NCBI GenBank assembly: GCA_963697165.1
Contig: CAVOMX010000014.1
Span: forward strand, 49,862 to 81,861
Length of the DNA stretch: 32,000 nt
Source of the DNA: Candidatus Bathyarchaeota archaeon
Lineage (GTDB): Archaea; Thermoproteota; Bathyarchaeia; Bathyarchaeales; Bathyarchaeaceae
Direction: 5' to 3'
The notes beneath the pieces are model-generated. The model made no database searches and had not been told where the DNA came from. It was given only the letters and a program-made list of their open reading frames with translations. Made by a program: the position numbers and the translations under genes. Of the stretch, positions 132-31,543 are shown in pieces (within the stretch, counting starts at the first letter, position 1; each line of letters starts with the position of its first letter).

Positions 132-338
132 TTACCTCAAAGCAGTTAATAATAGCAAAATAATGATTAGGAAGAAGCCGAGCATGGCTGCCAAAACAAA
201 GTCAGGTAGTGGTCCACGGTGCATCTTCTTGATTTTCTGTCCGTGCTCAACCGTTTTTCCTGCAAACAGATAGACCAGATTATCCAAGAATGAATCAATA
301 TATTCATGGGTTACCCGCGCAGTCTCCACTGGTTCCAC
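132..338 (-). CDS. nuoL: C-terminal fragment of the NuoL-like subunit (last lateral-helix repeat plus terminal TM helix). It is +1 out of frame with 304..2172.
   Basis: The sequence VETARVTHEYIDSFLDNLVYLFAGKT repeats the 26-aa unit seen twice at the end of ORF 304..2172. It is followed by the hydrophobic tail PDFVLAAMLGFFLIIILLLLTAL. The ORF overlaps the upstream ORF by 35 nt. Confidence 0.6.
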   Translation of the reverse strand: MEPVETARVTHEYIDSFLDNLVYLFAGKTVEHGQKIKKMHRGPLPDFVLAAMLGFFLIIILLLLTALR

Positions 339-465
339 CCGCCAAAATATAGCTTAAGCGGTCTAGGAAAGATTCAAGGTGCACATGTGTGTTGTGAGCA
401 GTAATCACGGCTCCACCAGCTATGATATAAACGAACCTGTCAAGAAATGATTCTATGTAATCGTG
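231..465 (-). repeat. Three tandem 78-bp (26-codon) coding repeats forming the NuoL lateral-helix region. More degenerate copies extend to about 606.
   Basis: The protein units are HDYIESFLDRFVYIIAGGAVITAHNT, HVHLESFLDRLSYILAGG.. and HEYIDSFLDNLVYLFAGKTVEHGQKI. The DNA copies have diverged, so the repeat is clear only at the amino-acid level. Confidence 0.7.
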
Positions 466-2172
466 AGTACCATGGGCAATCCTCAAAGCCCCGCCTGCAA
501 CAAGATAAGGAAATTGTTGCAACCCAGACATTTCAATGATACTGTATGTAACCTGCGCCAAACCCATGACTCCATTCAATAGTTTATTGTAAACGGCATC
601 GAAGTAATAGCCGTTGGATATTAAAAGATAAAGCGGTTTGTTTAAAAAACTTCTTGCAGAAACCATGGCAGTATCTCTCTTCTTGTAGTAAAGATAGTAG
701 GCTGTAGATAAGCCAACAGCGAGGATTATAGCTGATGTTAAACTCGCCAAAATGACGCCATTGAATGAAGCTTCAAAGGGTATCGCAAGGTAATGCTCTA
801 AGGGAGTCTTGAAGAAACCTGCGATACAGGAGGCAGCGGCTAACAGGACAAGGGGTACAGTTATTGTTGGTTTAGGATCATGCAATTGATGGTGCTCAAG
901 ATGCTCTGATTTCTTTCCGAGGAAAACCAGAGATATCCATCTAATACTGTAGATGGCTGTTAACACAGATGTTCCGAAAATCAAAATGAAAAGTGGAATG
1001 TTATTAGCTAAGATTATGGCTTCGAATATAGTGTCTTTGCTCCAGAAACCGCTGAAAGGCGGAATACCGGCAAGCGAAAACGCGCCGATAACACTCACTA
1101 TGAAGGTTATAGGCATCTCTTTTCTTATGCCTCCAAGCTGTTTCAGATCAAGAGTGTGAGTAATATGCATTACAACTCCAGCACAAAGGAACAAAAGCGA
1201 CTTGAAGAGGGCGTGGCTGAGTACGTGGAATTGACTAGCGAACCAGCCTAGTTCAGTTCCTATGCCTAGGGCGGCCATTATCATGCCCAACTGGCTTATT
1301 GTAGAAAATGCTAGAACCCGTTTCAGGTCTGAGCTGGTCAATGCCATGGTTGCTGCAAGGAAAGCCGTGATTCCTCCGATGTATGTAATTGTGGTTAACC
1401 ATGGCTGCACCAAAGAGAAGAGAATGTAGATTCTTGCCACAAGATAGATTCCCGCTTTAACCATTGTTGCACCATGGATGAGGGCACTAGTCGGTGTTGG
1501 TCCTTCCATGGCGTTCGGAAGCCAAACATGTAATGGAAATTGGGCAGATTTGCCTATAGCCCCAATCAACATCAAAACGGACACTGCTAACATTGGAACT
1601 GAAACTTGCCCAGCTGCTATAAGATCGCGGATTTCAAGAAAGTCGAATGTTCCAGTGTTCACGTATAGAAGCAGTATTCCGAGTAGTAGAAAAATGTCTC
1701 CGATTCTTGTTACGATGAAGGCTTTCATGCCTGCCTTGGCTGATTCAGGTCTAGTGTACCAGAATCCGATGAGGGCATATGAGCATAATCCAACGGTTTC
1801 CCAGAACATGTACATCTGTAGAAGATTGTTTGCCATAACTAAGCCAATCATTCCACCGACGAAAAGAAGCATGAAGAAAAAGAATCTGGGAGTTCCTTTT
1901 TCTTTTTCCATATAGTTAACGGAGTAAATCATGATTAGCAGTCCAACACAGGCTGCAATGTTTGCCATCATGATGCTTAACGGGTCGATGAGGACGCTAA
2001 GGTTGATTTTCATGGATTGCATCCAAGGCATAGAATACAGTTGCGCTTCGCCATGAGCGTTGATTACGCTGGGAATAAGCGAGACAGTGTTAACAGCAGA
2101 AACAAGAGTGACTAAAACTGCGTACCAGCCAACGCTTCTACGCCGAAACTTGGCTACCAAAGGTATAAACAA
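304..2172 (-). CDS. nuoL: NuoL/HyfB/MrpA-like proton-antiporter subunit (main body). The C-terminus is interrupted by a frameshift and the N-terminus is probably longer than the TTG call.
   Basis: 622 aa and polytopic, with family-typical stretches WETVGLCSYALIGFWY, AGMKAFIVTRIGD, SAQFPLHVWLPNAMEGPTPTSALIHGATMVKAG and SQLG. It sits after the NuoK-like gene. Confidence 0.85.
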   Translation of the reverse strand: MFIPLVAKFRRRSVGWYAVLVTLVSAVNTVSLIPSVINAHGEAQLYSMPWMQSMKINLSVLIDPLSIMMANIAACVGLLIMIYSVNYMEKEKGTPRFFFFMLLFVGGMIGLVMANNLLQMYMFWETVGLCSYALIGFWYTRPESAKAGMKAFIVTRIGDIFLLLGILLLYVNTGTFDFLEIRDLIAAGQVSVPMLAVSVLMLIGAIGKSAQFPLHVWLPNAMEGPTPTSALIHGATMVKAGIYLVARIYILFSLVQPWLTTITYIGGITAFLAATMALTSSDLKRVLAFSTISQLGMIMAALGIGTELGWFASQFHVLSHALFKSLLFLCAGVVMHITHTLDLKQLGGIRKEMPITFIVSVIGAFSLAGIPPFSGFWSKDTIFEAIILANNIPLFILIFGTSVLTAIYSIRWISLVFLGKKSEHLEHHQLHDPKPTITVPLVLLAAASCIAGFFKTPLEHYLAIPFEASFNGVILASLTSAIILAVGLSTAYYLYYKKRDTAMVSARSFLNKPLYLLISNGYYFDAVYNKLLNGVMGLAQVTYSIIEMSGLQQFPYLVAGGALRIAHGTHDYIESFLDRFVYIIAGGAVITAHNTHVHLESFLDRLSYILAGGTSGDCAGNP

Positions 2173-2233
2173 TGATCCGACAAATGGAATTGCCCAACAT
2201 AGCCAGGCTGCGTACTCGGCTGGAATCAGAATG

Positions 2234-2564: not shown

Positions 2565-3044
2565 TTAGTTTCTCCTCCGTTCCTCCTTCAAAAGGAGCAC
2601 TACGCCAAGCGCAGCCGTCAAAACGACTAAACCTTGAGCAAGAACATCAATCGCCCTCAAGTCCCATAATGCACTTGATAGTGACAAATCCAATGAGCTA
2701 GTAAAAGTTTGGGTTGCCACAGTTCCAACAACTACTGGAACAGAAAGAATTGCAGAAACAATTAAACCCATGAATATCGTTTTGGTGGATGTTTTCGTGT
2801 CGCTTTTCTTGGTTAACGAATCACCAGCAAGAAGAAAAATCGCTGCAGTTCCAGTGCCTAACGCCAACTGGAAGATTGCAGCGAAAGGCGCATTTAAGCT
2901 AAAGTAGAGCAATGAAAGCAATATCATCATTGTGCTTAGAGACAAAACCGAAGACACGGTTTCCTTCAAGTATATCGCAAAAACCGCAGAGGTCACCATA
3001 CCAATAGCCAGAACTGTTTCAAGCCACATACTATTTTCCCTCAT
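2565..3044 (-). CDS. nuoJ: NuoJ-like membrane subunit
   Basis: 159 aa, multi-TM, positioned between the I-like and K-like genes. It overlaps the upstream gene by 14 nt. The assignment rests mostly on synteny and topology. Confidence 0.65.
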   Translation of the reverse strand: MRENSMWLETVLAIGMVTSAVFAIYLKETVSSVLSLSTMMILLSLLYFSLNAPFAAIFQLALGTGTAAIFLLAGDSLTKKSDTKTSTKTIFMGLIVSAILSVPVVVGTVATQTFTSSLDLSLSSALWDLRAIDVLAQGLVVLTAALGVVLLLKEERRRN

Positions 3045-3426
3045 CTGTAGTAGATTTTTGTTTAATAATAAATTCCTCTGGATTTATCAGCATCTCTTCC
3101 TTTTCTGTTGTTGACATCTCAAAATTTGTGGATAGCTTTATTGCCTCTCTTGGGCAGCTTTCCGCGCATTGATAACAAAATACGCAGCGGTCAAGGTAAA
3201 ACTTTGGCATCCGTTTCCCAGAAACTTCCACAAGTTCTATAGCATTAGCGGGACAGTCCCGCTCGCATAAGCCGCAGCTGATGCACTTTTCAGGATAGAA
3301 AACGTGCCTGCCTCGGTAGCCTTCAGGAGCTTCTACCTTTACAGCGGGATACTCACGAGTGAAGGACTTCTTGAAGATACATGAGCCCATGTCTTTTATC
3401 AGTGATGGTAATCGTAGTTTAGTCAC
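3031..3426 (-). CDS. nuoI: NuoI/HycF-like 2x[4Fe-4S] ferredoxin subunit
   Basis: It has two CxxCxxCxxxCP motifs: CISCGLCERDCP and CVFCYQCAESCP. Confidence 0.85.
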   Translation of the reverse strand: MTKLRLPSLIKDMGSCIFKKSFTREYPAVKVEAPEGYRGRHVFYPEKCISCGLCERDCPANAIELVEVSGKRMPKFYLDRCVFCYQCAESCPREAIKLSTNFEMSTTEKEEMLINPEEFIIKQKSTTDEGK

Positions 3427-3437
3427 ACTTTTTCCTC

Positions 3438-4430
3438 CTAACCAATCACCGACCGCAACAACGGTTCAATAATTATTGTAATAGCAAGAGATAAAATAGA
3501 CAAGGGAATCATAAATTTCCAGTTGCCATGAACAACCTGATCTATCCGTAATCTGGCAGACACATTACCGACATACTCTAGAACAAACACTACTCCAAGT
3601 GTTTTAACCATGAACCAGAAAGCATACCAGAGTTCAGGTGGTCCAATCAGCACGGGTCCATGAGCTCCACCTAAGAACAACATAGTTACAAGAGATGCAC
3701 CAACCAGGAACTGAAAATCTTCTGCAAGTTTTATAAAAGCCAATTTTCTTCCACTGAACTCCGTTTCGTAACCTCCCACAATTTCGGTTTCTGCATGAGG
3801 AATATCGAAAGGATCCTTCTCTAACTCAGCCTGTAAGACAATAATAAACAAGAAACAAGACCAAGGAATCAGAAGAGCAAAAGGAATAGATTGGCTCGCC
3901 GTAATATTCACAATGGACAAGCTTTTTGCAAGAAAAGCGGGACCAATCGCGAGAAGAATAAGAGGTATGTCGTATCCGAGAAACTGGGTCAGAACTCTGG
4001 TTGCGCCAATCCCGCTGTACGGATTCAAAGAAGCCCAACCGGCAAGGAATATAGCAAAGTTTGCGAGAGATACAATAAGCAAAACTAGAAGCAAATCTCC
4101 CTCGAAACTCGAATTCAAAATCACATTTGAACCATCGATCGGGATATAGAAAAGACCAAAAACATAGAGTGAAAACGCAAGAATTGGAGCTGCCACAAAT
4201 AGCAGTTTGTTGGTATTCTTTGGAGTAATATCTTCATTCGAGAACAGTTTTATGTAATCGGCAATGGGTTGAAGAATACCAAATGGACCGGCATAAGAGG
4301 GACCCATACGGTTCTGAAACCGAGCTGCAACCTTTCTTTCAAACCAGTCAAAAAATAGAACTAGCACCAAGAGAAAGATGAAACCCGGAAACACCAGTGC
4401 CCTTACAATAAAAAGGAGATCAATAGCCAT
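3438..4430 (-). CDS. nuoH: NuoH/HycD-like membrane subunit
   Basis: 330 aa and polytopic, with family-typical stretches RKVAARFQNRMGPSYAGPFGILQPIADYIKLF and DIPHAETEIVGGYETEFSG. Confidence 0.85.
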   Translation of the reverse strand: MAIDLLFIVRALVFPGFIFLLVLVLFFDWFERKVAARFQNRMGPSYAGPFGILQPIADYIKLFSNEDITPKNTNKLLFVAAPILAFSLYVFGLFYIPIDGSNVILNSSFEGDLLLVLLIVSLANFAIFLAGWASLNPYSGIGATRVLTQFLGYDIPLILLAIGPAFLAKSLSIVNITASQSIPFALLIPWSCFLFIIVLQAELEKDPFDIPHAETEIVGGYETEFSGRKLAFIKLAEDFQFLVGASLVTMLFLGGAHGPVLIGPPELWYAFWFMVKTLGVVFVLEYVGNVSARLRIDQVVHGNWKFMIPLSILSLAITIIIEPLLRSVIG

Positions 4431-6104
4431 CTAGATCAACGCCTTCCGGTTTATAGAATTGTTTACGTCGTCAAGGCTCCAATGCCATTTCTGACCATTT
4501 TTGGTATCAATGAATGCCATACGGTCAGTGCAAGAAAAGCATGGGTCTAAGCTTCCCATCACAGAGGGAATATCAGCGATGTGGGCACCCCTAATTGCAT
4601 CTGGAAATGCCATAAGGTTAGCTAAGGTTGGAGCTCTGACCTTAACTCTGTAAGGATAGGCGGTTCCATCACTTTTAACATAATGGATAAGCTCGCCTCT
4701 CGGAGCCTCAACACGGCTAACAGCCTCACCTTCAGGTATTTTTCGTTGAACCCTAACCCGCAAACGACCCCCTGGAATGTGACGAAGCGCATATTCTAGT
4801 ATATCCAAGCTTTCCAGTACTTCTTCAGCTCGAACCATCAGCCGAGCCCATGTGTCACACTCCTTATAGCTCACTACATTGAAAGGAATTTCCCCATACG
4901 CCGCGTAAGGGTCATCTTTTCTGACATCAACAGCAATTCCTGACCCACGTGCAACAGGACCAACAACACATAATTTCAAAGCATCTGCTCTGTTCAATAC
5001 GCCGACCCCTTCGGTTCTCATCCTCAATGTCGGGTCTTCATCGAATACCTTCTTGTAGAAAGTCGCCCGTTTCCTGACATCTTTGACTGTCTTCAGAGTC
5101 TTCTCAATTGTACTTGGGTCTATATCTCGTCTTACTCCGCCGATTGTGTTGAACCCGCACATCAGTCGGTTTCCCGTGATTCGTTCGATTATATCCATTA
5201 CAGGTTCTCTGTCACGCCACACATGCTGGAATAGTGCTTCAAAACCAAGCAGGTGACCGCCAACTCCAAGCAATAGGAGGTGACTATGAACTCTGTTTAG
5301 CTCATGTATAATAGTACGTAAGTATAATGCACGAGGCGGAGTCTCAATGTTTCCGATGTCCTCAACAGCTTGACAGAAGACAGTTGTGTGAGCAGCATTA
5401 CAGATACCACAAATTCTCTCCACCAAAAACACGTCTTGGAAGTACATCATGCGCTCAGCCGCTTTCTCAATACCCCTATGAACATATCCAAGACGCGGCT
5501 CAACATCCACAACCGTTTCCCCATCAACTTTGAAGTTGAATCTTTCTGGCTCATGCAAAACTGGATGCTGAGGCCCTACAACGACGTTAATTATCGACCC
5601 AGAATCATCTTCCGCTGATTCAGTCTGCGAAGCTTTCTCAGAACTGAAAGCAATTTCTTGGTTAACCGGAGGCTTCCAATCTTTTCTAAGAGGATAATTT
5701 CCTTGAGGCCAATTCTCAGGAAGCAACAACCTTTCCAGATTTGGATGACCCTCAAAAGCGACTCCTAAGAGGTCAAAGACTTCCCGCTCATACAAATTTG
5801 CTCCGGGCAGGATGTCAGTAATCGTTTGGGTAACAGGGTTTTCTCGAGAAACACGGTTCTTGAGGGTTATGGTTCCCGCACAAGCCATGTGATAGTTTAA
5901 CTCGATCTCGTTTCCTAAATCAACGCCACTTATTGTCGAAAGCTCCACGTCCTCAACTTGTGTTAGGAGCAACGAGATTGCATCTCTGTGACGTTCAGGT
6001 TTAAGAAGAATGTAGGCTTTCCTTGGCCTAGGGACTCTACACTCGAGAATCGAATCAGCCAAATTATTCTTGAGAACTTCTACAGCATTTTCGAACGTGT
6101 TCAT
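4431..6104 (-). CDS. Fused NuoC-like domain plus group-4 [NiFe]-hydrogenase large subunit (HycE/NuoCD architecture). The Ni-Fe ligand motifs are intact.
   Basis: The N-terminal half shows the NuoC signature (LYEREVFDLLGVAFEGHPNLERLLLP...YPLRKDW). The L1 motif RICGICNAAH lies at nt 5388-5417 and the L2 motif DPCFSCTDR at nt 4521-4547; I re-translated both from the DNA. A 29-aa extension follows the Arg. Confidence 0.85.
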   Translation of the reverse strand: MNTFENAVEVLKNNLADSILECRVPRPRKAYILLKPERHRDAISLLLTQVEDVELSTISGVDLGNEIELNYHMACAGTITLKNRVSRENPVTQTITDILPGANLYEREVFDLLGVAFEGHPNLERLLLPENWPQGNYPLRKDWKPPVNQEIAFSSEKASQTESAEDDSGSIINVVVGPQHPVLHEPERFNFKVDGETVVDVEPRLGYVHRGIEKAAERMMYFQDVFLVERICGICNAAHTTVFCQAVEDIGNIETPPRALYLRTIIHELNRVHSHLLLLGVGGHLLGFEALFQHVWRDREPVMDIIERITGNRLMCGFNTIGGVRRDIDPSTIEKTLKTVKDVRKRATFYKKVFDEDPTLRMRTEGVGVLNRADALKLCVVGPVARGSGIAVDVRKDDPYAAYGEIPFNVVSYKECDTWARLMVRAEEVLESLDILEYALRHIPGGRLRVRVQRKIPEGEAVSRVEAPRGELIHYVKSDGTAYPYRVKVRAPTLANLMAFPDAIRGAHIADIPSVMGSLDPCFSCTDRMAFIDTKNGQKWHWSLDDVNNSINRKALI

Positions 6105-6110
6105 AGTTTG

Positions 6111-6524
6111 CTATCCCTTCAATTTTCCAAGTAATTTCGCGACACCCTGCACTATTGCTTCGGGTTTTGGAGGACACCCCGGAATATAAACATCAACAGG
6201 AATTATCTCATCGAGACGCTTACTCACACCGTAACATCCTTGAAATATTCCTCCGGAACAGGCGCAGGCTCCTATTGCTAGAACAAATTTTGGTGAGGGC
6301 ATTTGCTGATAAATCATCTCGAGTCGTGGTGCACACTGCTTAGTAACAACTCCGGTTACCACAAGAACGTCTGCATGACGAGGTGAGGGCTCAAGTTTCA
6401 CACCGAAACGTTCAACATCGTATCTGGGCGTCAGCAGCGCAACAACTTCAATATCGCATCCATTGCATGCTCCGGTATTGAAGTGAAGCAGCCATGGCGA
6501 GTTTATTCTAGCCCATTTCACCAA
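6111..6524 (-). CDS. NuoB/HycG-like [4Fe-4S] small subunit (hydrogenase-type cysteine pattern)
   Basis: 137 aa with TGACNGCDIE, AIGACACSGG and IPGCPPKPE, the cysteine pattern of group-4 hydrogenase small subunits. Confidence 0.85.
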   Translation of the reverse strand: MVKWARINSPWLLHFNTGACNGCDIEVVALLTPRYDVERFGVKLEPSPRHADVLVVTGVVTKQCAPRLEMIYQQMPSPKFVLAIGACACSGGIFQGCYGVSKRLDEIIPVDVYIPGCPPKPEAIVQGVAKLLGKLKG

Positions 6525-6541: not shown

Positions 6542-6865
6542 TTAGTAGCCTCCCATAAGCAGTAGGTCTGCTGCTAAAATTATACCCAAATAAATTAACA
6601 AAGAGAAGGGGTTGATAATCTCTAGAGCTAAGGCTGCAAAAGCCAATATCAACGCAGGGGAGTCTATTATAACAAAGAATATGAGGTACTTATAGAGAGT
6701 AACATTAACCAACAGCCTTTTTGAGAACACTTTTTCTCCACATGCATACATTGCGCTTTTTTCTTCGTTAGCAGGAGATTTTTTTGTTAACAAGCCGCTG
6801 GACAAGTAAATCAATGAAGCAATGAACAAGATAATTAGAAAAGCAACAAGAGACTCTACAAGCAA
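6542..6865 (-). CDS. nuoA: NuoA-like three-TM subunit (divergent), first gene of the operon
   Basis: 107 aa with three TM helices. The loop motif YACGE matches NuoA YECG, and FFVIIDSP matches the NuoA FLLFDVE region. It has a TTG start and is preceded by 520 bp of AT-rich non-coding DNA. Confidence 0.5.
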   Translation of the reverse strand: MLVESLVAFLIILFIASLIYLSSGLLTKKSPANEEKSAMYACGEKVFSKRLLVNVTLYKYLIFFVIIDSPALILAFAALALEIINPFSLLIYLGIILAADLLLMGGY

Positions 6866-26569: not shown

Positions 26570-28498
26570 TCAGTCTACTGTAACACTTGGGGGATATTCC
26601 ACCATCACCCAAAGACCATTGGATCCAGAGCTTGGGTAGATCGGCTCACCATTAAAGGTTACGACTGCGCCATACCAAGTCACATCCAAAGGATCTTTAA
26701 AGGGAGATACTGAAATTTGTTCCACTGGATTAAACTCGATACGTGAAGCAGTTACGTTTAGAGCTCCTGTTTTGTCGTCCACGATAGAATCGAAAGTGTA
26801 AAGTTTCTGGTTATATAAGTCAGTGAACATTAGCCCTGCTCCCGAGTTTCCTGAACTGACTTGGCTCCAATGATGATCCCAACCTGTTGGTGAACCGTCA
26901 TAGAAGAGAACTGTGGAACTGGAAGTTTCAGGGTAGACTCCATCGGTTCCGTCTTCTGTTAGTGGCGTTCCACTGAGACCTGAAATTTGGATGGCGCTAA
27001 GATCAGAAACGATCCTGCTCTGGGAGGAGTTTACGAAAATTGTTCTTGCTGCATAGGTATAATATGGTGTGTTTGCCGGTAATGTCAAAAAGACCTGTGA
27101 ATAAAAGTTAGGACTACCTGCAACTCCGCCACTGTATTCTGGTTCTTGTTGAATTATGTCTCTGACTACGCCGTTGTAGATTACATACGCAGGTTGTGCC
27201 CCGTACGTAGGCAGTTCATCATTGACACGTAGAAAATCCGCTCTATAGCTAGTTGAGTTGCCTAAAACACGTGAAACTACATAGAAATTATTTATGTCTA
27301 GTCTTAGAAATCCGTTTCGTAAAATTCCAGAAGACGGATTGTCATTGAAGTAAACGTTTTCCCAAGCATAGGACGTCTGGATTGCTCTGTCGTTCCCATC
27401 CCACCATAACGTAACCTCGCTAATAGCATTATTAACTAAAAATACTAACATTCTATTGTTGTTGAGTAGGCTATTGTTTCCAGCAAGTCCAAGAGGTATC
27501 TGGTAGGAAGATGCCCAATTTTCCACTTGGAAAGGCACCTCTTGGTTAACACCATTGATGGTTGCGTTAACATGAAGACCTTTGACTGAAATTGGAGGAA
27601 TCGGTTTCGTCTGAGGGGTTAGTTCCAGATTTTGGCCAAGCCATCTTAAAGTGCCGTTTTGGAGAAGCTCAATAACCATTGTATCCGTGGACAAAGACTC
27701 ATAAATTGTTTGCATGCCATTAACGTTCCAGTTAAAAGTGTAAGTGTAATGGGGAATTCCTGAGCTAACAGAGTTTTGTGAATAAAAAGCGGTTACTATT
27801 ATACCTCTATTGTCTTCAACTTGAACCGAGTATGCATCTTGGTCTACTCCTGAAGGAATTGTTAGGGTATAAACTCCGTTAGAAGAGATTATAAGGTTAG
27901 TTGGATTGACTAGCTCCCAAGTTGAGTCATCATAGTTGTATTTGTAGAACCAGAAGTTTTCTTCGCTTAATCCTAGTTCAGGCTCGGTATTATCACGAAT
28001 GACCTTGATTTGGGCTACACCAGAACCTGAGGATAGCATTGTGACTTTCAGGGCTGAAGATGTTTCATATGTTACTCCCTCGATTCCGAGACTCCCCAAT
28101 GAATAAGTTAGTGAAATGTTTCCCACACTGTAGCTCTCAGGCATATACCAACGGGTGGAGACTTGGTCAAAACTGAGTGAGAAGGATGGGTTCCATTCAG
28201 GATGCGAATGCGCAATATGGACAAGCCCGCTCGAAAGATAACTGTCAGTGAGGCTCTGGGCGTATGTTGAGTTACCGGTAACTTTCAGTATTGAACCGTA
28301 ATATCCAACTGTATGATCCAATATTCGTTTGATATCCGCATTCATTTCTCCCATAGCTGTTAGGACTGTGGGTGAGTTCTGTATCGGAGCGTAGCGGACC
28401 ATACTATAAGTGGATATAACTGCAGTTACTAGAATCACAGATACAAGTAACGCCGCGATTATGGAGAACTGCCCCTTATTCGCTCTACTACCCTTCAT
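26570..28498 (-). CDS. Large pilin-like protein (642 aa) with a canonical class III signal peptide
   Basis: MKGSRANKG|QFSIIAALLVSVILVTAVISTY is the signal region. The remainder is Ser/Thr/Asn/Tyr-rich and beta-like, with many N-x-S/T sequons. Confidence 0.75.
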   Translation of the reverse strand: MKGSRANKGQFSIIAALLVSVILVTAVISTYSMVRYAPIQNSPTVLTAMGEMNADIKRILDHTVGYYGSILKVTGNSTYAQSLTDSYLSSGLVHIAHSHPEWNPSFSLSFDQVSTRWYMPESYSVGNISLTYSLGSLGIEGVTYETSSALKVTMLSSGSGVAQIKVIRDNTEPELGLSEENFWFYKYNYDDSTWELVNPTNLIISSNGVYTLTIPSGVDQDAYSVQVEDNRGIIVTAFYSQNSVSSGIPHYTYTFNWNVNGMQTIYESLSTDTMVIELLQNGTLRWLGQNLELTPQTKPIPPISVKGLHVNATINGVNQEVPFQVENWASSYQIPLGLAGNNSLLNNNRMLVFLVNNAISEVTLWWDGNDRAIQTSYAWENVYFNDNPSSGILRNGFLRLDINNFYVVSRVLGNSTSYRADFLRVNDELPTYGAQPAYVIYNGVVRDIIQQEPEYSGGVAGSPNFYSQVFLTLPANTPYYTYAARTIFVNSSQSRIVSDLSAIQISGLSGTPLTEDGTDGVYPETSSSTVLFYDGSPTGWDHHWSQVSSGNSGAGLMFTDLYNQKLYTFDSIVDDKTGALNVTASRIEFNPVEQISVSPFKDPLDVTWYGAVVTFNGEPIYPSSGSNGLWVMVEYPPSVTVD

Positions 28499-28501
28499 GA
28501 A

Positions 28502-29827
28502 TTATGTTCCTCCTTGCTGACCTAGTTGGAGGGTGACAAGTCTTGAAGTGCCATCCGCTCCGAACTCTGATTGATAGATGGTGGGTCTGAAGTGCATTAA
28601 GAGAGCCAAGCCGGTGATCCTTATGTCAGGAATCCTTGTTAGCCCGATTGCAGTGAAAGCTCCACCTCGTTGGTGAGTGAAAGTTGCGCCTGCAATCCAT
28701 CCTGGGGATACAGTTTCGAAAACATAGTCGTTTGGTTGAACAGTGAGGTTGTATGTATTCAGGATTGAGTCTGGAAGGGCTCGGGTGGCTGTTTGGTATG
28801 GAGAAGGAAATATCCCATAATAATTTGAACTCTCATATGCGTAGGAACTGAATTGTACTACTCCCCCTCCTGGTGGTGTTCCGGCAATTCCGCTATCACT
28901 GAAGCTAGTTGGTGGTGGATTTTGGTATTCGTGATCTAAACCTTCCAGAAACGCATTGAGCCCTGACTGTCCTACCATCATCATACCATAGATTCCCCAT
29001 GTGTTGTCGCTCCCTGAGAATTTTACAGTGTTAGTAACGTAATACAAAGGGTAACCTACGATGCTGACGTATGTCCAATTGTATTGGTTTATTTTTTGTC
29101 CTAGAACATAGCAATATTGTGCATATGAATCAGCAGAATAAAGGTCTGCATAAGCTGAAGGAATTGGAATAGCCTCACCACATGTGTTGATTATAACTCC
29201 ATTTTCCAAAGTCTCACCAACTAAGGGTGTTCCATCTAGTAGGTTTCCAAACTGAGCGGTAGAGTTCACGAGAATAGTTGTGCTAAAATATGGAGAGAGA
29301 AGATGGTAGAGGTCTAATGCAAGGGTTTGCAGGGAGTATCCTGTAATCCACCATCCGTTTGCGTCATTGCAGTTCAGGATATACAGCGTGATGTTTTGTC
29401 CTGTGCTTTCTCCCACTTTTTGTGAATCTTGGGCGAATGTAACATCGGGTGATGCCACCATTAATGATGCAGCCTCAGAATCTGCTCCGAAACTTGCATC
29501 TGATTTCGATGTTGCTAATTGATATGTTACAACTTCATCAGTGTCTGAAAGAATGTCATAAACTGTAAGGTTATACACTACGTTGGGTGGAAGAGAAGCT
29601 GAAAGAGCTTTTTGCAGGTCACTCCATGCAACATCAGATGAGTCTTTGAAAACTGTCTCACTTAAAATACCCTTTTCATCCAAAGTTTCAAGAGTTGATT
29701 GAGAAAGCCCTCGCAGATTAGTTCCGAAAGCTTGGCGTGGCGTAGGCAAAACAGCAAAATATGATGTGATAACGAAGGCTCCAAGTAGGATTACGATTAC
29801 GAATAGCACTTCAACAGTTCTCATCAA
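28502..29827 (-). CDS. Large N-terminally anchored pilin-like protein (441 aa)
   Basis: The N-terminus is MMRTVEVLFVIVILLGAFVITSYFAV, with T-V-E next to the hydrophobic helix. The extracellular-type composition includes sequons. The gene starts 13 nt after the upstream stop. Confidence 0.65.
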   Translation of the reverse strand: MMRTVEVLFVIVILLGAFVITSYFAVLPTPRQAFGTNLRGLSQSTLETLDEKGILSETVFKDSSDVAWSDLQKALSASLPPNVVYNLTVYDILSDTDEVVTYQLATSKSDASFGADSEAASLMVASPDVTFAQDSQKVGESTGQNITLYILNCNDANGWWITGYSLQTLALDLYHLLSPYFSTTILVNSTAQFGNLLDGTPLVGETLENGVIINTCGEAIPIPSAYADLYSADSYAQYCYVLGQKINQYNWTYVSIVGYPLYYVTNTVKFSGSDNTWGIYGMMMVGQSGLNAFLEGLDHEYQNPPPTSFSDSGIAGTPPGGGVVQFSSYAYESSNYYGIFPSPYQTATRALPDSILNTYNLTVQPNDYVFETVSPGWIAGATFTHQRGGAFTAIGLTRIPDIRITGLALLMHFRPTIYQSEFGADGTSRLVTLQLGQQGGT

Positions 29828-29840
29828 CGCTCATCACCAC

Positions 29841-31061
29841 CTAATTGTCCAATTTCCATGTAGAAACCTTCACATTATATGATAAACCGTCGATAGTGAC
29901 CGCCCTAAGTTCAGTAGCAACAAAATTGTGACCACTAGAATCAAGACCTTCACTAAAGGAAGTTGATGCTCCAAGGACTCCAAGACCCCAGGGCATCGAA
30001 ACACTTCCTAGTTTATTATTCCACCTATATGTAATGAATAGAAATCCTACTTCAGAAGCGGGAATTTGTGTAGTTTCAAAATCTTTAGAGCCATAATTTA
30101 GGTGACCTGTAGAATTATCTACCACAACCTGCTCTAACTGAAAGTCGGGAGTCAAAACATAAAAGGTGGCGTTATAATTAACGCTCGGCACTGGATTTTG
30201 TGTATACTCGTGAACACCCCAGCTATGGGCAATCATAATTATTCCTTCATTGTAGTCTTTAATCAGCGGTACAACATATTCAGGATAATCACCAATATCA
30301 TCCTGAGAATAATATCCTACACCAGTAAGCCCACTTAGACGAGCATATACCATGAACTGGTATGCATCATCCTCATCATCAATATCCTCAAATTCTAGTA
30401 GAACTGAACCTAACGAGTCAGTTTGACTAACTCCCGAATAAGGGACAATTGTAGAAGTAGAACCTCCTCCCTTGTCGACTTGAAAAAGATAATAATTCAA
30501 GGTTGCACCACTCAAAGGATATCCTGACCCACTTACATCAACTTCAAGAGCAAGATGACCAAAACCCAGAACCTTTGAAATGCTAACGTTCACAATTGGC
30601 CTAATATCCAAACTGAAGCCATATGTCCCATTTATCCCCAGCAACTTCGAAGCCGTGGAGTAGTTTATACAATCACCCAGGGGAGTTAGTATCGAATTTC
30701 CAAAGTTTGCAGTAATATTGTTATAGAAATTACCAGAGTCAGGAGGGTATTCAACAAGTTGGCTACCAGTAGAATCAACTCTCAATCGCATCATCGAATA
30801 CGGACTAAGAGAATATCCACCAGCCACAGGATCTTGAAGACCAAAACCTAAAACAGAACTGTTTGTTGCCCCCCAATCTACAGGACTTCCAGGAGACAGA
30901 CATATTGTATTCATTATATCTACGGCTTTTGTGGCAACTTGAGTGTTGGTTTCATAAGCAACTGCGCTGCTGAACATCTGATTGAAGCTGGTCATGGCAA
31001 AAAGCAATGCAGCTATAAGAATTATAAGTGATACCATGTGGTCTATTGTAGCTCCAGCCAT
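29841..31061 (-). CDS. Large N-terminally anchored pilin-like protein (406 aa)
   Basis: The N-terminus is MAG|ATIDHMVSLIILIAALLFAM. GGAGG lies 8 nt upstream of the ATG, and the gene overlaps the upstream gene by 19 nt. Confidence 0.65.
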   Translation of the reverse strand: MAGATIDHMVSLIILIAALLFAMTSFNQMFSSAVAYETNTQVATKAVDIMNTICLSPGSPVDWGATNSSVLGFGLQDPVAGGYSLSPYSMMRLRVDSTGSQLVEYPPDSGNFYNNITANFGNSILTPLGDCINYSTASKLLGINGTYGFSLDIRPIVNVSISKVLGFGHLALEVDVSGSGYPLSGATLNYYLFQVDKGGGSTSTIVPYSGVSQTDSLGSVLLEFEDIDDEDDAYQFMVYARLSGLTGVGYYSQDDIGDYPEYVVPLIKDYNEGIIMIAHSWGVHEYTQNPVPSVNYNATFYVLTPDFQLEQVVVDNSTGHLNYGSKDFETTQIPASEVGFLFITYRWNNKLGSVSMPWGLGVLGASTSFSEGLDSSGHNFVATELRAVTIDGLSYNVKVSTWKLDN

Positions 31062-31543
31062 TTAATTAACCTCCAAAAGAAAAAATAAGAGGTACTGTTA
31101 GAAAATTTTTGGACATTAATTGAAGCACCAGCAGAATTGCTCCTAAGAGTCGAATCTATCCATTCAACATTAGGACCAAGCAAAGCCGACGCCGACAAAG
31201 TGTTACCTAATTCATCCAATGTTATTGTGACAATGAGAATCTTAACCGACCCGGGTTCGGAGATGCTACTTAACGACGCCGTGGCTGTGTAAGGATAAGA
31301 AGCAACAGTTACTGGAAGTGTTGAAGCTTGATTAACGTTTCCCGCCAATATTTCATCCCGATTTACTGTCAGATAAAGCTGCTGAATAGTACTCGCTAAA
31401 TGGTTTGCTACATCCTGCAAAGCAACATCCCTTTGAGAATCCTGCCAACTGGAGGTCATTGTACTCGCCACAAAAGGAAACACTATCACCTGACTGAAAA
31501 GCAAAGGAATCAAAATCACATACTCAATCGTAACACTTACCAT
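31043..31543 (-). CDS. TadE/Flp-like pseudopilin-type protein (166 aa)
   Basis: The N-terminus MVSVTIEYVILIPLLFSQVIVFPFV resembles the (A/T)-(I/V)-E-(Y/F)-hydrophobic motif of Flp/TadE-type pilins. The C-terminal residues YFFFWRLIKWLELQ, read across a T-run, may be a read-through artefact. Confidence 0.6.
   Translation of the reverse strand: MVSVTIEYVILIPLLFSQVIVFPFVASTMTSSWQDSQRDVALQDVANHLASTIQQLYLTVNRDEILAGNVNQASTLPVTVASYPYTATASLSSISEPGSVKILIVTITLDELGNTLSASALLGPNVEWIDSTLRSNSAGASINVQKFSNSTSYFFFWRLIKWLELQ

Follow-up and report, generated by a model that had tools for sequence, protein, structure and literature searches.

Tandem 26-residue modules probably lengthen the lateral helix of HfoL in a Bathyarchaeota archaeon without additional pump genes

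The lateral helix of complex I is commonly viewed as a strut that is matched in length to the row of pumps. It lies on the cytoplasmic side, where it links the transmembrane helices 7 (TM7) of the pumps (PMC7419157). In the so-called "2M" complex I of Nitrospira and others, as it is summarized in papers citing the original work, a 26-residue insertion into this helix accompanies a second nuoM gene (Chadwick et al. 2018, cited in PMC9040806 and PMC7419157), and this one lengthening had been read as space for a fourth pump. The NuoL proteins of Complex_I_1 and Complex_I_2 of "Ca. Manganitrophaceae" carry lateral-helix insertions of about 26 residues with standard pumps only (Yu et al. 2022, PMC9040806). 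Hfo, an Fpo-like 11-subunit [NiFe] hydrogenase of Bathyarchaeia assigned to group 4g, has no biochemically characterized member so far (Loh, Herve & Brune 2021, PMC7886697). Here, we describe the L subunit, HfoL, of an Hfo-type operon at the left end of a 32,000-nucleotide stretch of a Candidatus Bathyarchaeota genome (GCA_963697165.1; contig C14:49862-81861, hereafter "the window"), which comes from an assembly of 1.99 Mb in 25 contigs that is 81% complete. We consider it likely that the lateral-helix region of HfoL is a chain of tandemly duplicated 26-residue modules that lengthens the tether without extra pump genes, and that the break in the reading frame of its gene is an artefact.

The hfoL (nuoL-type) gene lies on the minus strand between nuoK and nuoM (132-2232) and, when read through, encodes 699 residues, which is the modal length among intact relatives. 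Its product matches PF00662 (Proton_antipo_N, E = 3.4e-16) and then PF00361 (Proton_antipo_M, E = 5.7e-85), with NdhF and NuoL chains as top PDB matches and with named homologues from "Candidatus Bathyarchaeota" and "Ca. Bathyarchaeum". It thus shares both domains and the succession of TM15, amphipathic helix and TM16 with the canonical NuoL/Nqo12/ND5 proteins of E. coli, T. thermophilus and mitochondria and with MrpA, and it retains both anchors of their lateral helix, aromatic-aromatic-F/I-D at the start and QTG or HxG at the end. Between TM15 and TM16, however, the chain consists of five amphipathic helical modules compared with two in canonical NuoL.

These modules became apparent when base 330 was omitted and the frame was read from the ATT at 2232. 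The C-terminal region then resolves into a tandem array of 26-residue units at window positions 225-615 (all on the minus strand); four of the five are clear and one is degenerate. Unit 0 (NGYYFD..., 538-615) is the degenerate first module and includes the start anchor of the lateral helix, which is conserved; unit 1 (IEMSGLQQFPY..., 460-537) is of a divergent type that is duplicated in relatives of 726 residues. It is followed by unit 2 (YIESFLDRFVY..., 382-459), by unit 3 (HLESFLDRLSY..., 303-381), which includes the extra base 330, and by unit 4 (YIDSFLDNLVY..., 225-302) as the last module, which is the counterpart of the canonical D..(I/L)D segment in the NuoL lateral helix. The end anchor (HRGPLPDF), the terminal helix TM16 and the stop codon take up positions 132-224. 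A first-pass annotation, made by a model from the letters of the window, had correctly recognized this region as the lateral-helix segment between the last core TM helices and the terminal TM helix of a NuoL-type subunit (TM15 and TM16) and had quoted three copies of the repeat with one or two degenerate ones upstream; all three and both degenerate copies are present, and the coordinates that it had given (231-606) deviate by no more than a few codons.

The lag-26 BLOSUM62 self-score of the region is 156, compared with a maximum of 22 at any lag in 5000 shuffles (mean -34, standard deviation 10.5), which corresponds to z = 18 for a period of 26. Using a hidden Markov model built from the units of relatives, we obtained four contiguous matches of exactly 26 residues (residues 566-669); unit 0 is weakly similar to the other units and requires a one-residue shift for alignment. 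Units 1 to 4 share 6-16 of 26 residues in pairwise comparisons. Charges at D/E3, D7 and R8 are conserved in every unit, with a His or Thr at the unit end, and a stripe of D3, D7, Y11, A14 and V18 recurs in every module, each of which has a 13-residue hydrophobic core. A conserved A-G-G punctuates the middle modules. At the DNA level, Tandem Repeats Finder detected no repeat with a 78-nucleotide period and a general repeat search gave short chance pairs alone, so the repeat is old and exists at the level of the protein. The five-unit architecture recurs in more than 70 independent relatives, and this recurrence together with the divergence of the units in their DNA rules out that they were duplicated during assembly. 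The chain arose through repeated tandem duplication of one module.

Measured from the start anchor to the end anchor, the helix region spans 130 residues compared with 52-54 in canonical NuoL, i.e., about 2.5 times the usual length, and the 78 added residues are three further copies of the 26-residue module. The canonical bacterial-type proteins P0084, P0085 and P0087 span 53-54 residues, equivalent to two modules. The same elongation, which the first-pass annotation had suspected, is seen when residues after the YFD anchor region are counted, with 138 in P0002 (the closest intact relative) versus 54 in E. coli NuoL and 56 in T. elongatus NdhF.

Among relatives, this length changes in whole modules. 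Ten of 87 relatives lack the anchors; in the 77 measurable ones, the span is 129-131 residues in 72, 157 in three and 104-105 in two, so that close relatives may have one module more or one fewer. A wider sample of 50 L-type genes from about 45 genomes across Thermoproteota covers spans of 26 residues (one module, four genes), 51-58 (two modules, 29 genes), 76-81 (three modules, ten genes), 104-105 (four modules, two genes), 130 (five modules, four genes) and 157 (six modules, one gene). The number of modules is therefore quantised from one to six across this phylum, and it is still changing. Lineage-specific duplications affected the first module in P0113 and, as an exact copy, the unit-1-type module in P0115, and P0098 carries three near-identical modules. 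In comparisons within the genus, unit 2 matches unit 3 at 9-23 of 26 residues (median 15), and the values of 22-23 in P0076, P0045 and P0051 suggest that duplication or homogenisation was recent. Growth by duplication of units and a variable unit number among relatives had both been anticipated by the first-pass annotation. Across these proteins and their operons, the first and the last module are conserved along with TM16, the middle of the chain is variable and the pump genes are constant. The sequence family of the helix region is narrow, since a library-wide phmmer search retrieved only 30 clusters among 1.84 billion representatives, two of which are unrelated repetitive proteins.

The lengthening of the helix comes without extra antiporter-like genes. 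Downstream of hfoL there are only nuoM, nuoN and a gene of the FrhB/FdhB type, in this order, and the whole assembly contains three PF00361 genes. The same L-M-N-FrhB-like arrangement is present in operons with four modules (L005), five modules (L001, L021, L038 and L039) and six modules (L002), and the three-module Hfo operons of sister families (L027, L028 and L109) likewise have L-M-N plus an FrhB-like gene. A lengthened clamp had led the first-pass annotation to predict additional antiporter-like subunits downstream of the window; this is refuted because L-M-N stays constant across four-, five- and six-module operons and the genome holds three PF00361 genes. Exactly three such genes were also found in 13 of the 16 same-genus genomes with matches, while two of the remaining three have genes split across contigs or frames and the third is a closed genome with an unrelated second cluster. 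The lengths of the other subunits are unchanged between three-module and five-module operons. In the wider Thermoproteota sample, clusters with one module have two pumps (four of four) and those with two modules have three (20 clusters), yet three modules also come with three pumps in seven clusters, among them the non-hydrogenase complex I of L106 and L107, and no contiguous same-strand chain with more than three pumps was found in this sample. A "one module per pump" rule thus holds only up to two modules.

The one-module L-type subunits, about 560-613 residues long, are those of L035, L085, L088 and the second cluster of L106, with two antiporter-like genes each; several of these clusters adjoin large subunits with [NiFe] motifs, and L096 is a similar short-helix case. 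At two loci from sister families (L033, G025:C22:176001-196000, and L032, G024:C91), each cluster encodes two L-type subunits, one with a two-module helix and the other with a three- or four-module helix, and these clusters have as many as six antiporter-like genes, which are distributed over the two strands within 14 kb.

Compared with "2M" complex I as the citing papers describe it, HfoL has been lengthened in the same place and by the same quantum of 26 residues; the first-pass annotation was correct in noting that such an insertion goes along with an extra NuoM there (PMC9040806, citing Chadwick et al. 2018). However, HfoL carries three extra modules (one to four in its relatives) without a second nuoM. 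The nearest published precedent is the NuoL of Manganitrophaceae with its lateral-helix insertion in the absence of extra pumps, though this is a single insertion in a bacterial NADH-type enzyme, whereas ours are multiple tandem modules with ongoing copy-number change in an archaeal enzyme of the hydrogenase type. The original description of Hfo does not mention the helix of the L subunit (zero occurrences of "helix", "HfoL" or "NuoL" in PMC7886697), and we found no description of multi-module lateral helices in the searchable literature. New with respect to these precedents are therefore the multiple tandem modules (up to four extra), their occurrence in a hydrogenase-type complex, the copy-number polymorphism and the lack of extra pump genes. 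The combination of three, four, five or six modules with three pump genes weakens the "one module, one pump" inference of pumping stoichiometry from genomes, and three modules with three pumps are also common elsewhere in Thermoproteota. It further provides a natural length series for testing the function of the lateral helix, which is experimentally within reach given that the cultivated Bathyarchaeum tardum carries the same Hfo cluster (PMC10477458).

The modules are predicted to form a surface helix rather than transmembrane hairpins, as the first-pass annotation had proposed. In a hydropathy scan with a sliding window of 18 residues on the Eisenberg scale, residues 540-670 show a mean hydrophobicity of mostly 0.1-0.5 with a helical moment of 0.3-0.5 over much of the span, compared with a far more hydrophobic TM16 (0.77-0.94) as the TM-like segment at residues 676-698. 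By this profile, the lateral-helix region is amphipathic and not transmembrane. When the hydrophobicity of the four clear units is analysed as a spectrum, the peak falls at 97 degrees per residue, i.e., at the seventh harmonic of 26, and none of 1000 shuffles reached its height. A stretch of 26 residues would correspond to about seven helical turns, so that each added unit would nearly keep the face of the helix. For P0002, AlphaFold2 with an alignment of 77 sequences gave a confident core and, at residues 540-699, a predicted local distance difference test (pLDDT) score of 30-46; the region is modelled as helical, and its helices are interrupted at the conserved A-G-G or close to it. When the helix region was used as the sole query, PDB sequences gave only chance matches (best E about 0.9, Rpn2) and the ESM Atlas no interpretable match.

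In the assembly, the hfoL gene is split into two open reading frames, 304-2172(2232) and 132-338, by one base at position 330 (A on the minus strand, T on the plus strand) between the codons ACC (333-331) and GTG (329-327), i.e., inside the second of the three copies that the first-pass annotation had quoted, as stated there. The base is extra relative to L001 (84% DNA identity). We compared it with Logan contigs of close relatives in four metagenome runs, none of which is clearly the source sample (the best share of words with any indexed run was 0.39): all contigs over positions 330/331 in runs X1, X3 and X4 lack the base, and so does a near-identical contig in X2, with pieces of 98% identity among them (X2 record 8 and X4 record 24). 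Further one-base insertions relative to L001 are found in nuoM (contig C14 about 49845, 16 nucleotides past the window edge) and nuoN (about 48431), and the FrhB-like gene has a net +1 shift (about 45640); the latter two breaks lie about 1430 and about 4220 nucleotides beyond window position 1. Four consecutive genes (L, M, N and FrhB-like) are thus broken. Beyond the operon, we aligned proteins of at least 200 residues from a closed genome of the same genus, and 29 of 122 orthologues (24%) matched in more than one frame, many with two or three breaks, affecting 12 of the 25 contigs. Because the base is absent from 98%-identical contigs and frame breaks occur genome-wide, the frameshift is best read as a one-base insertion error of an indel-rich assembly, and the real protein as intact with 699 residues. 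Programmed frameshifting was rejected as a candidate, since no motif is common to the four nearby insertion sites and genes throughout the genome have frame breaks as well. For annotation, this means that the split gene should be joined and that frameshifts of this metagenome-assembled genome should not be read as pseudogenes.

The first-pass estimate of about 680 residues holds for a start at the TTG at 2172, but relatives place the N-terminus 20 codons further upstream, which yields the 699 residues. The start codon there (2230-2232, minus strand) is ATT where L001 has ATG, with a GGAGG about 10 nucleotides upstream; no ATG, GTG or TTG precedes the TTG at 2172, and starting at the latter would remove half of TM1. 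The ATT may be a real substitution and a non-canonical start because identical Logan contigs of runs X1 and X3 cover the site. In L001, a relative contig that is otherwise intact, the nuoA/nuoB region (5472-6112) is called as fragments of 69, 71 and 68 residues, and the assembly of that relative may have frame errors of its own there.

How could a complex with three pumps accommodate such a helix? In the reading that we consider likely, the chain would be anchored at its two ends as in ordinary complex I, by the first module on one side and by the last module and TM16 on the other, while the middle modules would be amphipathic segments punctuated by A-G-G on the membrane or protein surface that lengthen the tether instead of measuring out pumps. 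Surplus modules would have to follow a kinked, looped or zig-zag course along the membrane surface or extend past HfoN. Because otherwise identical operons tolerate three, four, five or six modules, the helix cannot act as a rigid ruler along a surface of fixed length; if straight, this three-module range would amount to about 120 Å, tolerated by identical sets of partners. Several points weigh against this reading. The pLDDT of 30-46 means that the AlphaFold2 model does not fix the three-dimensional course of the helix at residues 540-699, and a complex prediction of HfoN, K and J with the helix region gave an ipSAE of 0.01 in a run without controls, which speaks neither for nor against the reading. 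The peak at 97 degrees largely follows from periodicity and amphipathicity, since a periodic amphipathic sequence must put power there, and we have downgraded it as proof of one continuous helix. The pump stoichiometry of the assembled enzyme is not readable from gene counts, and an unlinked pump gene could be missing from an assembly that is 81% complete, though the complete congeners argue otherwise. Finally, there is a small chance that base 330 is a real mutation in this population. If each added module instead spanned one more antiporter-like subunit, about six pumps would be clamped, encoded elsewhere or supplied as multiple copies of HfoM or HfoN. The step from one module with two pumps to two modules with three is what this view expects, and the literature ties one 26-residue insertion to a fourth pump. 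We nevertheless regard it as very unlikely, given that an extra PF00361 gene is absent from the operon, the genome and most congeners, that all variants with three to six modules have L-M-N, and that the seven three-module clusters with three pumps include non-hydrogenase complex I. The small driving force between H2 and ferredoxin would also make added pumps energetically unattractive (see the discussion in PMC7886697).

A straight and docked helix could alternatively run past HfoN over K/J/A and H or onto a neighbouring complex, with TM16 well away from its canonical position. A helix of about 150 residues would measure roughly 200 Å or more, close to the whole membrane arm of complex I, and both the D3, D7, Y11, A14, V18 stripe in every module and the helical phase that 26 residues nearly keep would suit such a clamp. 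Yet a range of about 120 Å among otherwise identical operons is beyond what a fixed docking surface absorbs, no subunit varies in length with the number of modules, and none of the models supports it, so we consider this course improbable. In a related but broader view, the surplus of three to four modules would mark a hitherto unknown quaternary architecture of Hfo, be it a clamp on the proximal K/J/A/H module, rows or dimers of complexes, or several copies of HfoM or HfoN per complex from single genes. A helix of roughly 200 Å and the terminal TM anchor would then reach beyond HfoN, and in the inter-complex version the register of dimers or rows would be set in steps of one pump width; we see this as a speculative option with a modest chance of being right. 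The modules might also be transmembrane hairpins or a separate domain of helical repeats to which a soluble partner, for example the conserved FrhB/CBS protein, would dock. Each has a hydrophobic core of 13 residues, the G-G, at or near which AlphaFold2 breaks the helices, could serve as a turn, and an FrhB-like gene is conserved beside hfoN. However, the hydrophobic stretches lack the necessary length, have D/R and H/N on their flanks and stay well under the hydrophobicity of TM16, while AlphaFold2 gave no confident compact fold and the PDB sequence search no similarity to a solved repeat domain, all of which makes hairpins or a docking domain quite improbable. A genuine pseudogene in a decaying distal pump module of this organism's Hfo would fit the frame break in each of L, M, N and the FrhB-like gene as well as the ATT start codon. 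Against this stand the broken orthologues on 12 contigs, which are typical of indel-rich assemblies, the near-identical contigs of other samples without the extra base, and a sequence that is, single bases aside, conserved as in intact relatives; we hold decay of the gene to be highly improbable.

The operon that encodes HfoL runs on the minus strand at the left end of the window with its genes in complex-I order. Based on Pfam matches, it begins with nuoA/hfoA (6542-6865) and continues with nuoB/hfoB (6111-6524), a fused nuoCD/hfoCD (4431-6104), nuoH/hfoH (3438-4430), nuoI/hfoI (3031-3426), nuoJ/hfoJ (2565-3044) and nuoK/hfoK (2234-2563), followed by hfoL and the 5' end of nuoM/hfoM (2-124, start at 124), the remainder of which lies outside the window. 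This matches the Hfo gene order A-B-CD-H-I-J-K-L-M-N, including the fusion of C and D. The large subunit in the CD protein (P0118) contains both [NiFe] motifs, with CGICNAAH as L1 and DPCFSCTDR as L2, in agreement with the published Hfo definitions (L1 C[GS][ILV]C[AGNS]xxH; L2 [DE][PL]Cx[AGST]Cx[DE][RL]; PMC7886697). Because both motifs are kept, we assign the operon to Hfo as a predicted Fpo-like [NiFe] hydrogenase rather than a quinone- or F420-linked complex. No NuoEFG genes are present within the cluster, the remainder of the genome not having been searched for them.

The FrhB/FdhB-type gene beyond the window (contig C14 45640-46968, after nuoN) encodes 442 residues. In most of the examined Hfo-type operons for which downstream sequence is available, hfoN is followed by the gene for a flavoprotein of this type, which has about 500 residues and ends in a pair of CBS domains (L001 15205-16728; L002 6066-7610; L005 6528-8066; also L027, L028, L108 and L109). 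It reaches distant families, and in L109 it is positioned upstream. Hfo has been described as lacking the F420-binding module, and the conserved FrhB/CBS gene falls outside that published description. At the other end of the window (26570-31543, minus strand), four consecutive open reading frames of 642, 441, 406 and 166 residues have no Pfam match at E <= 0.001.

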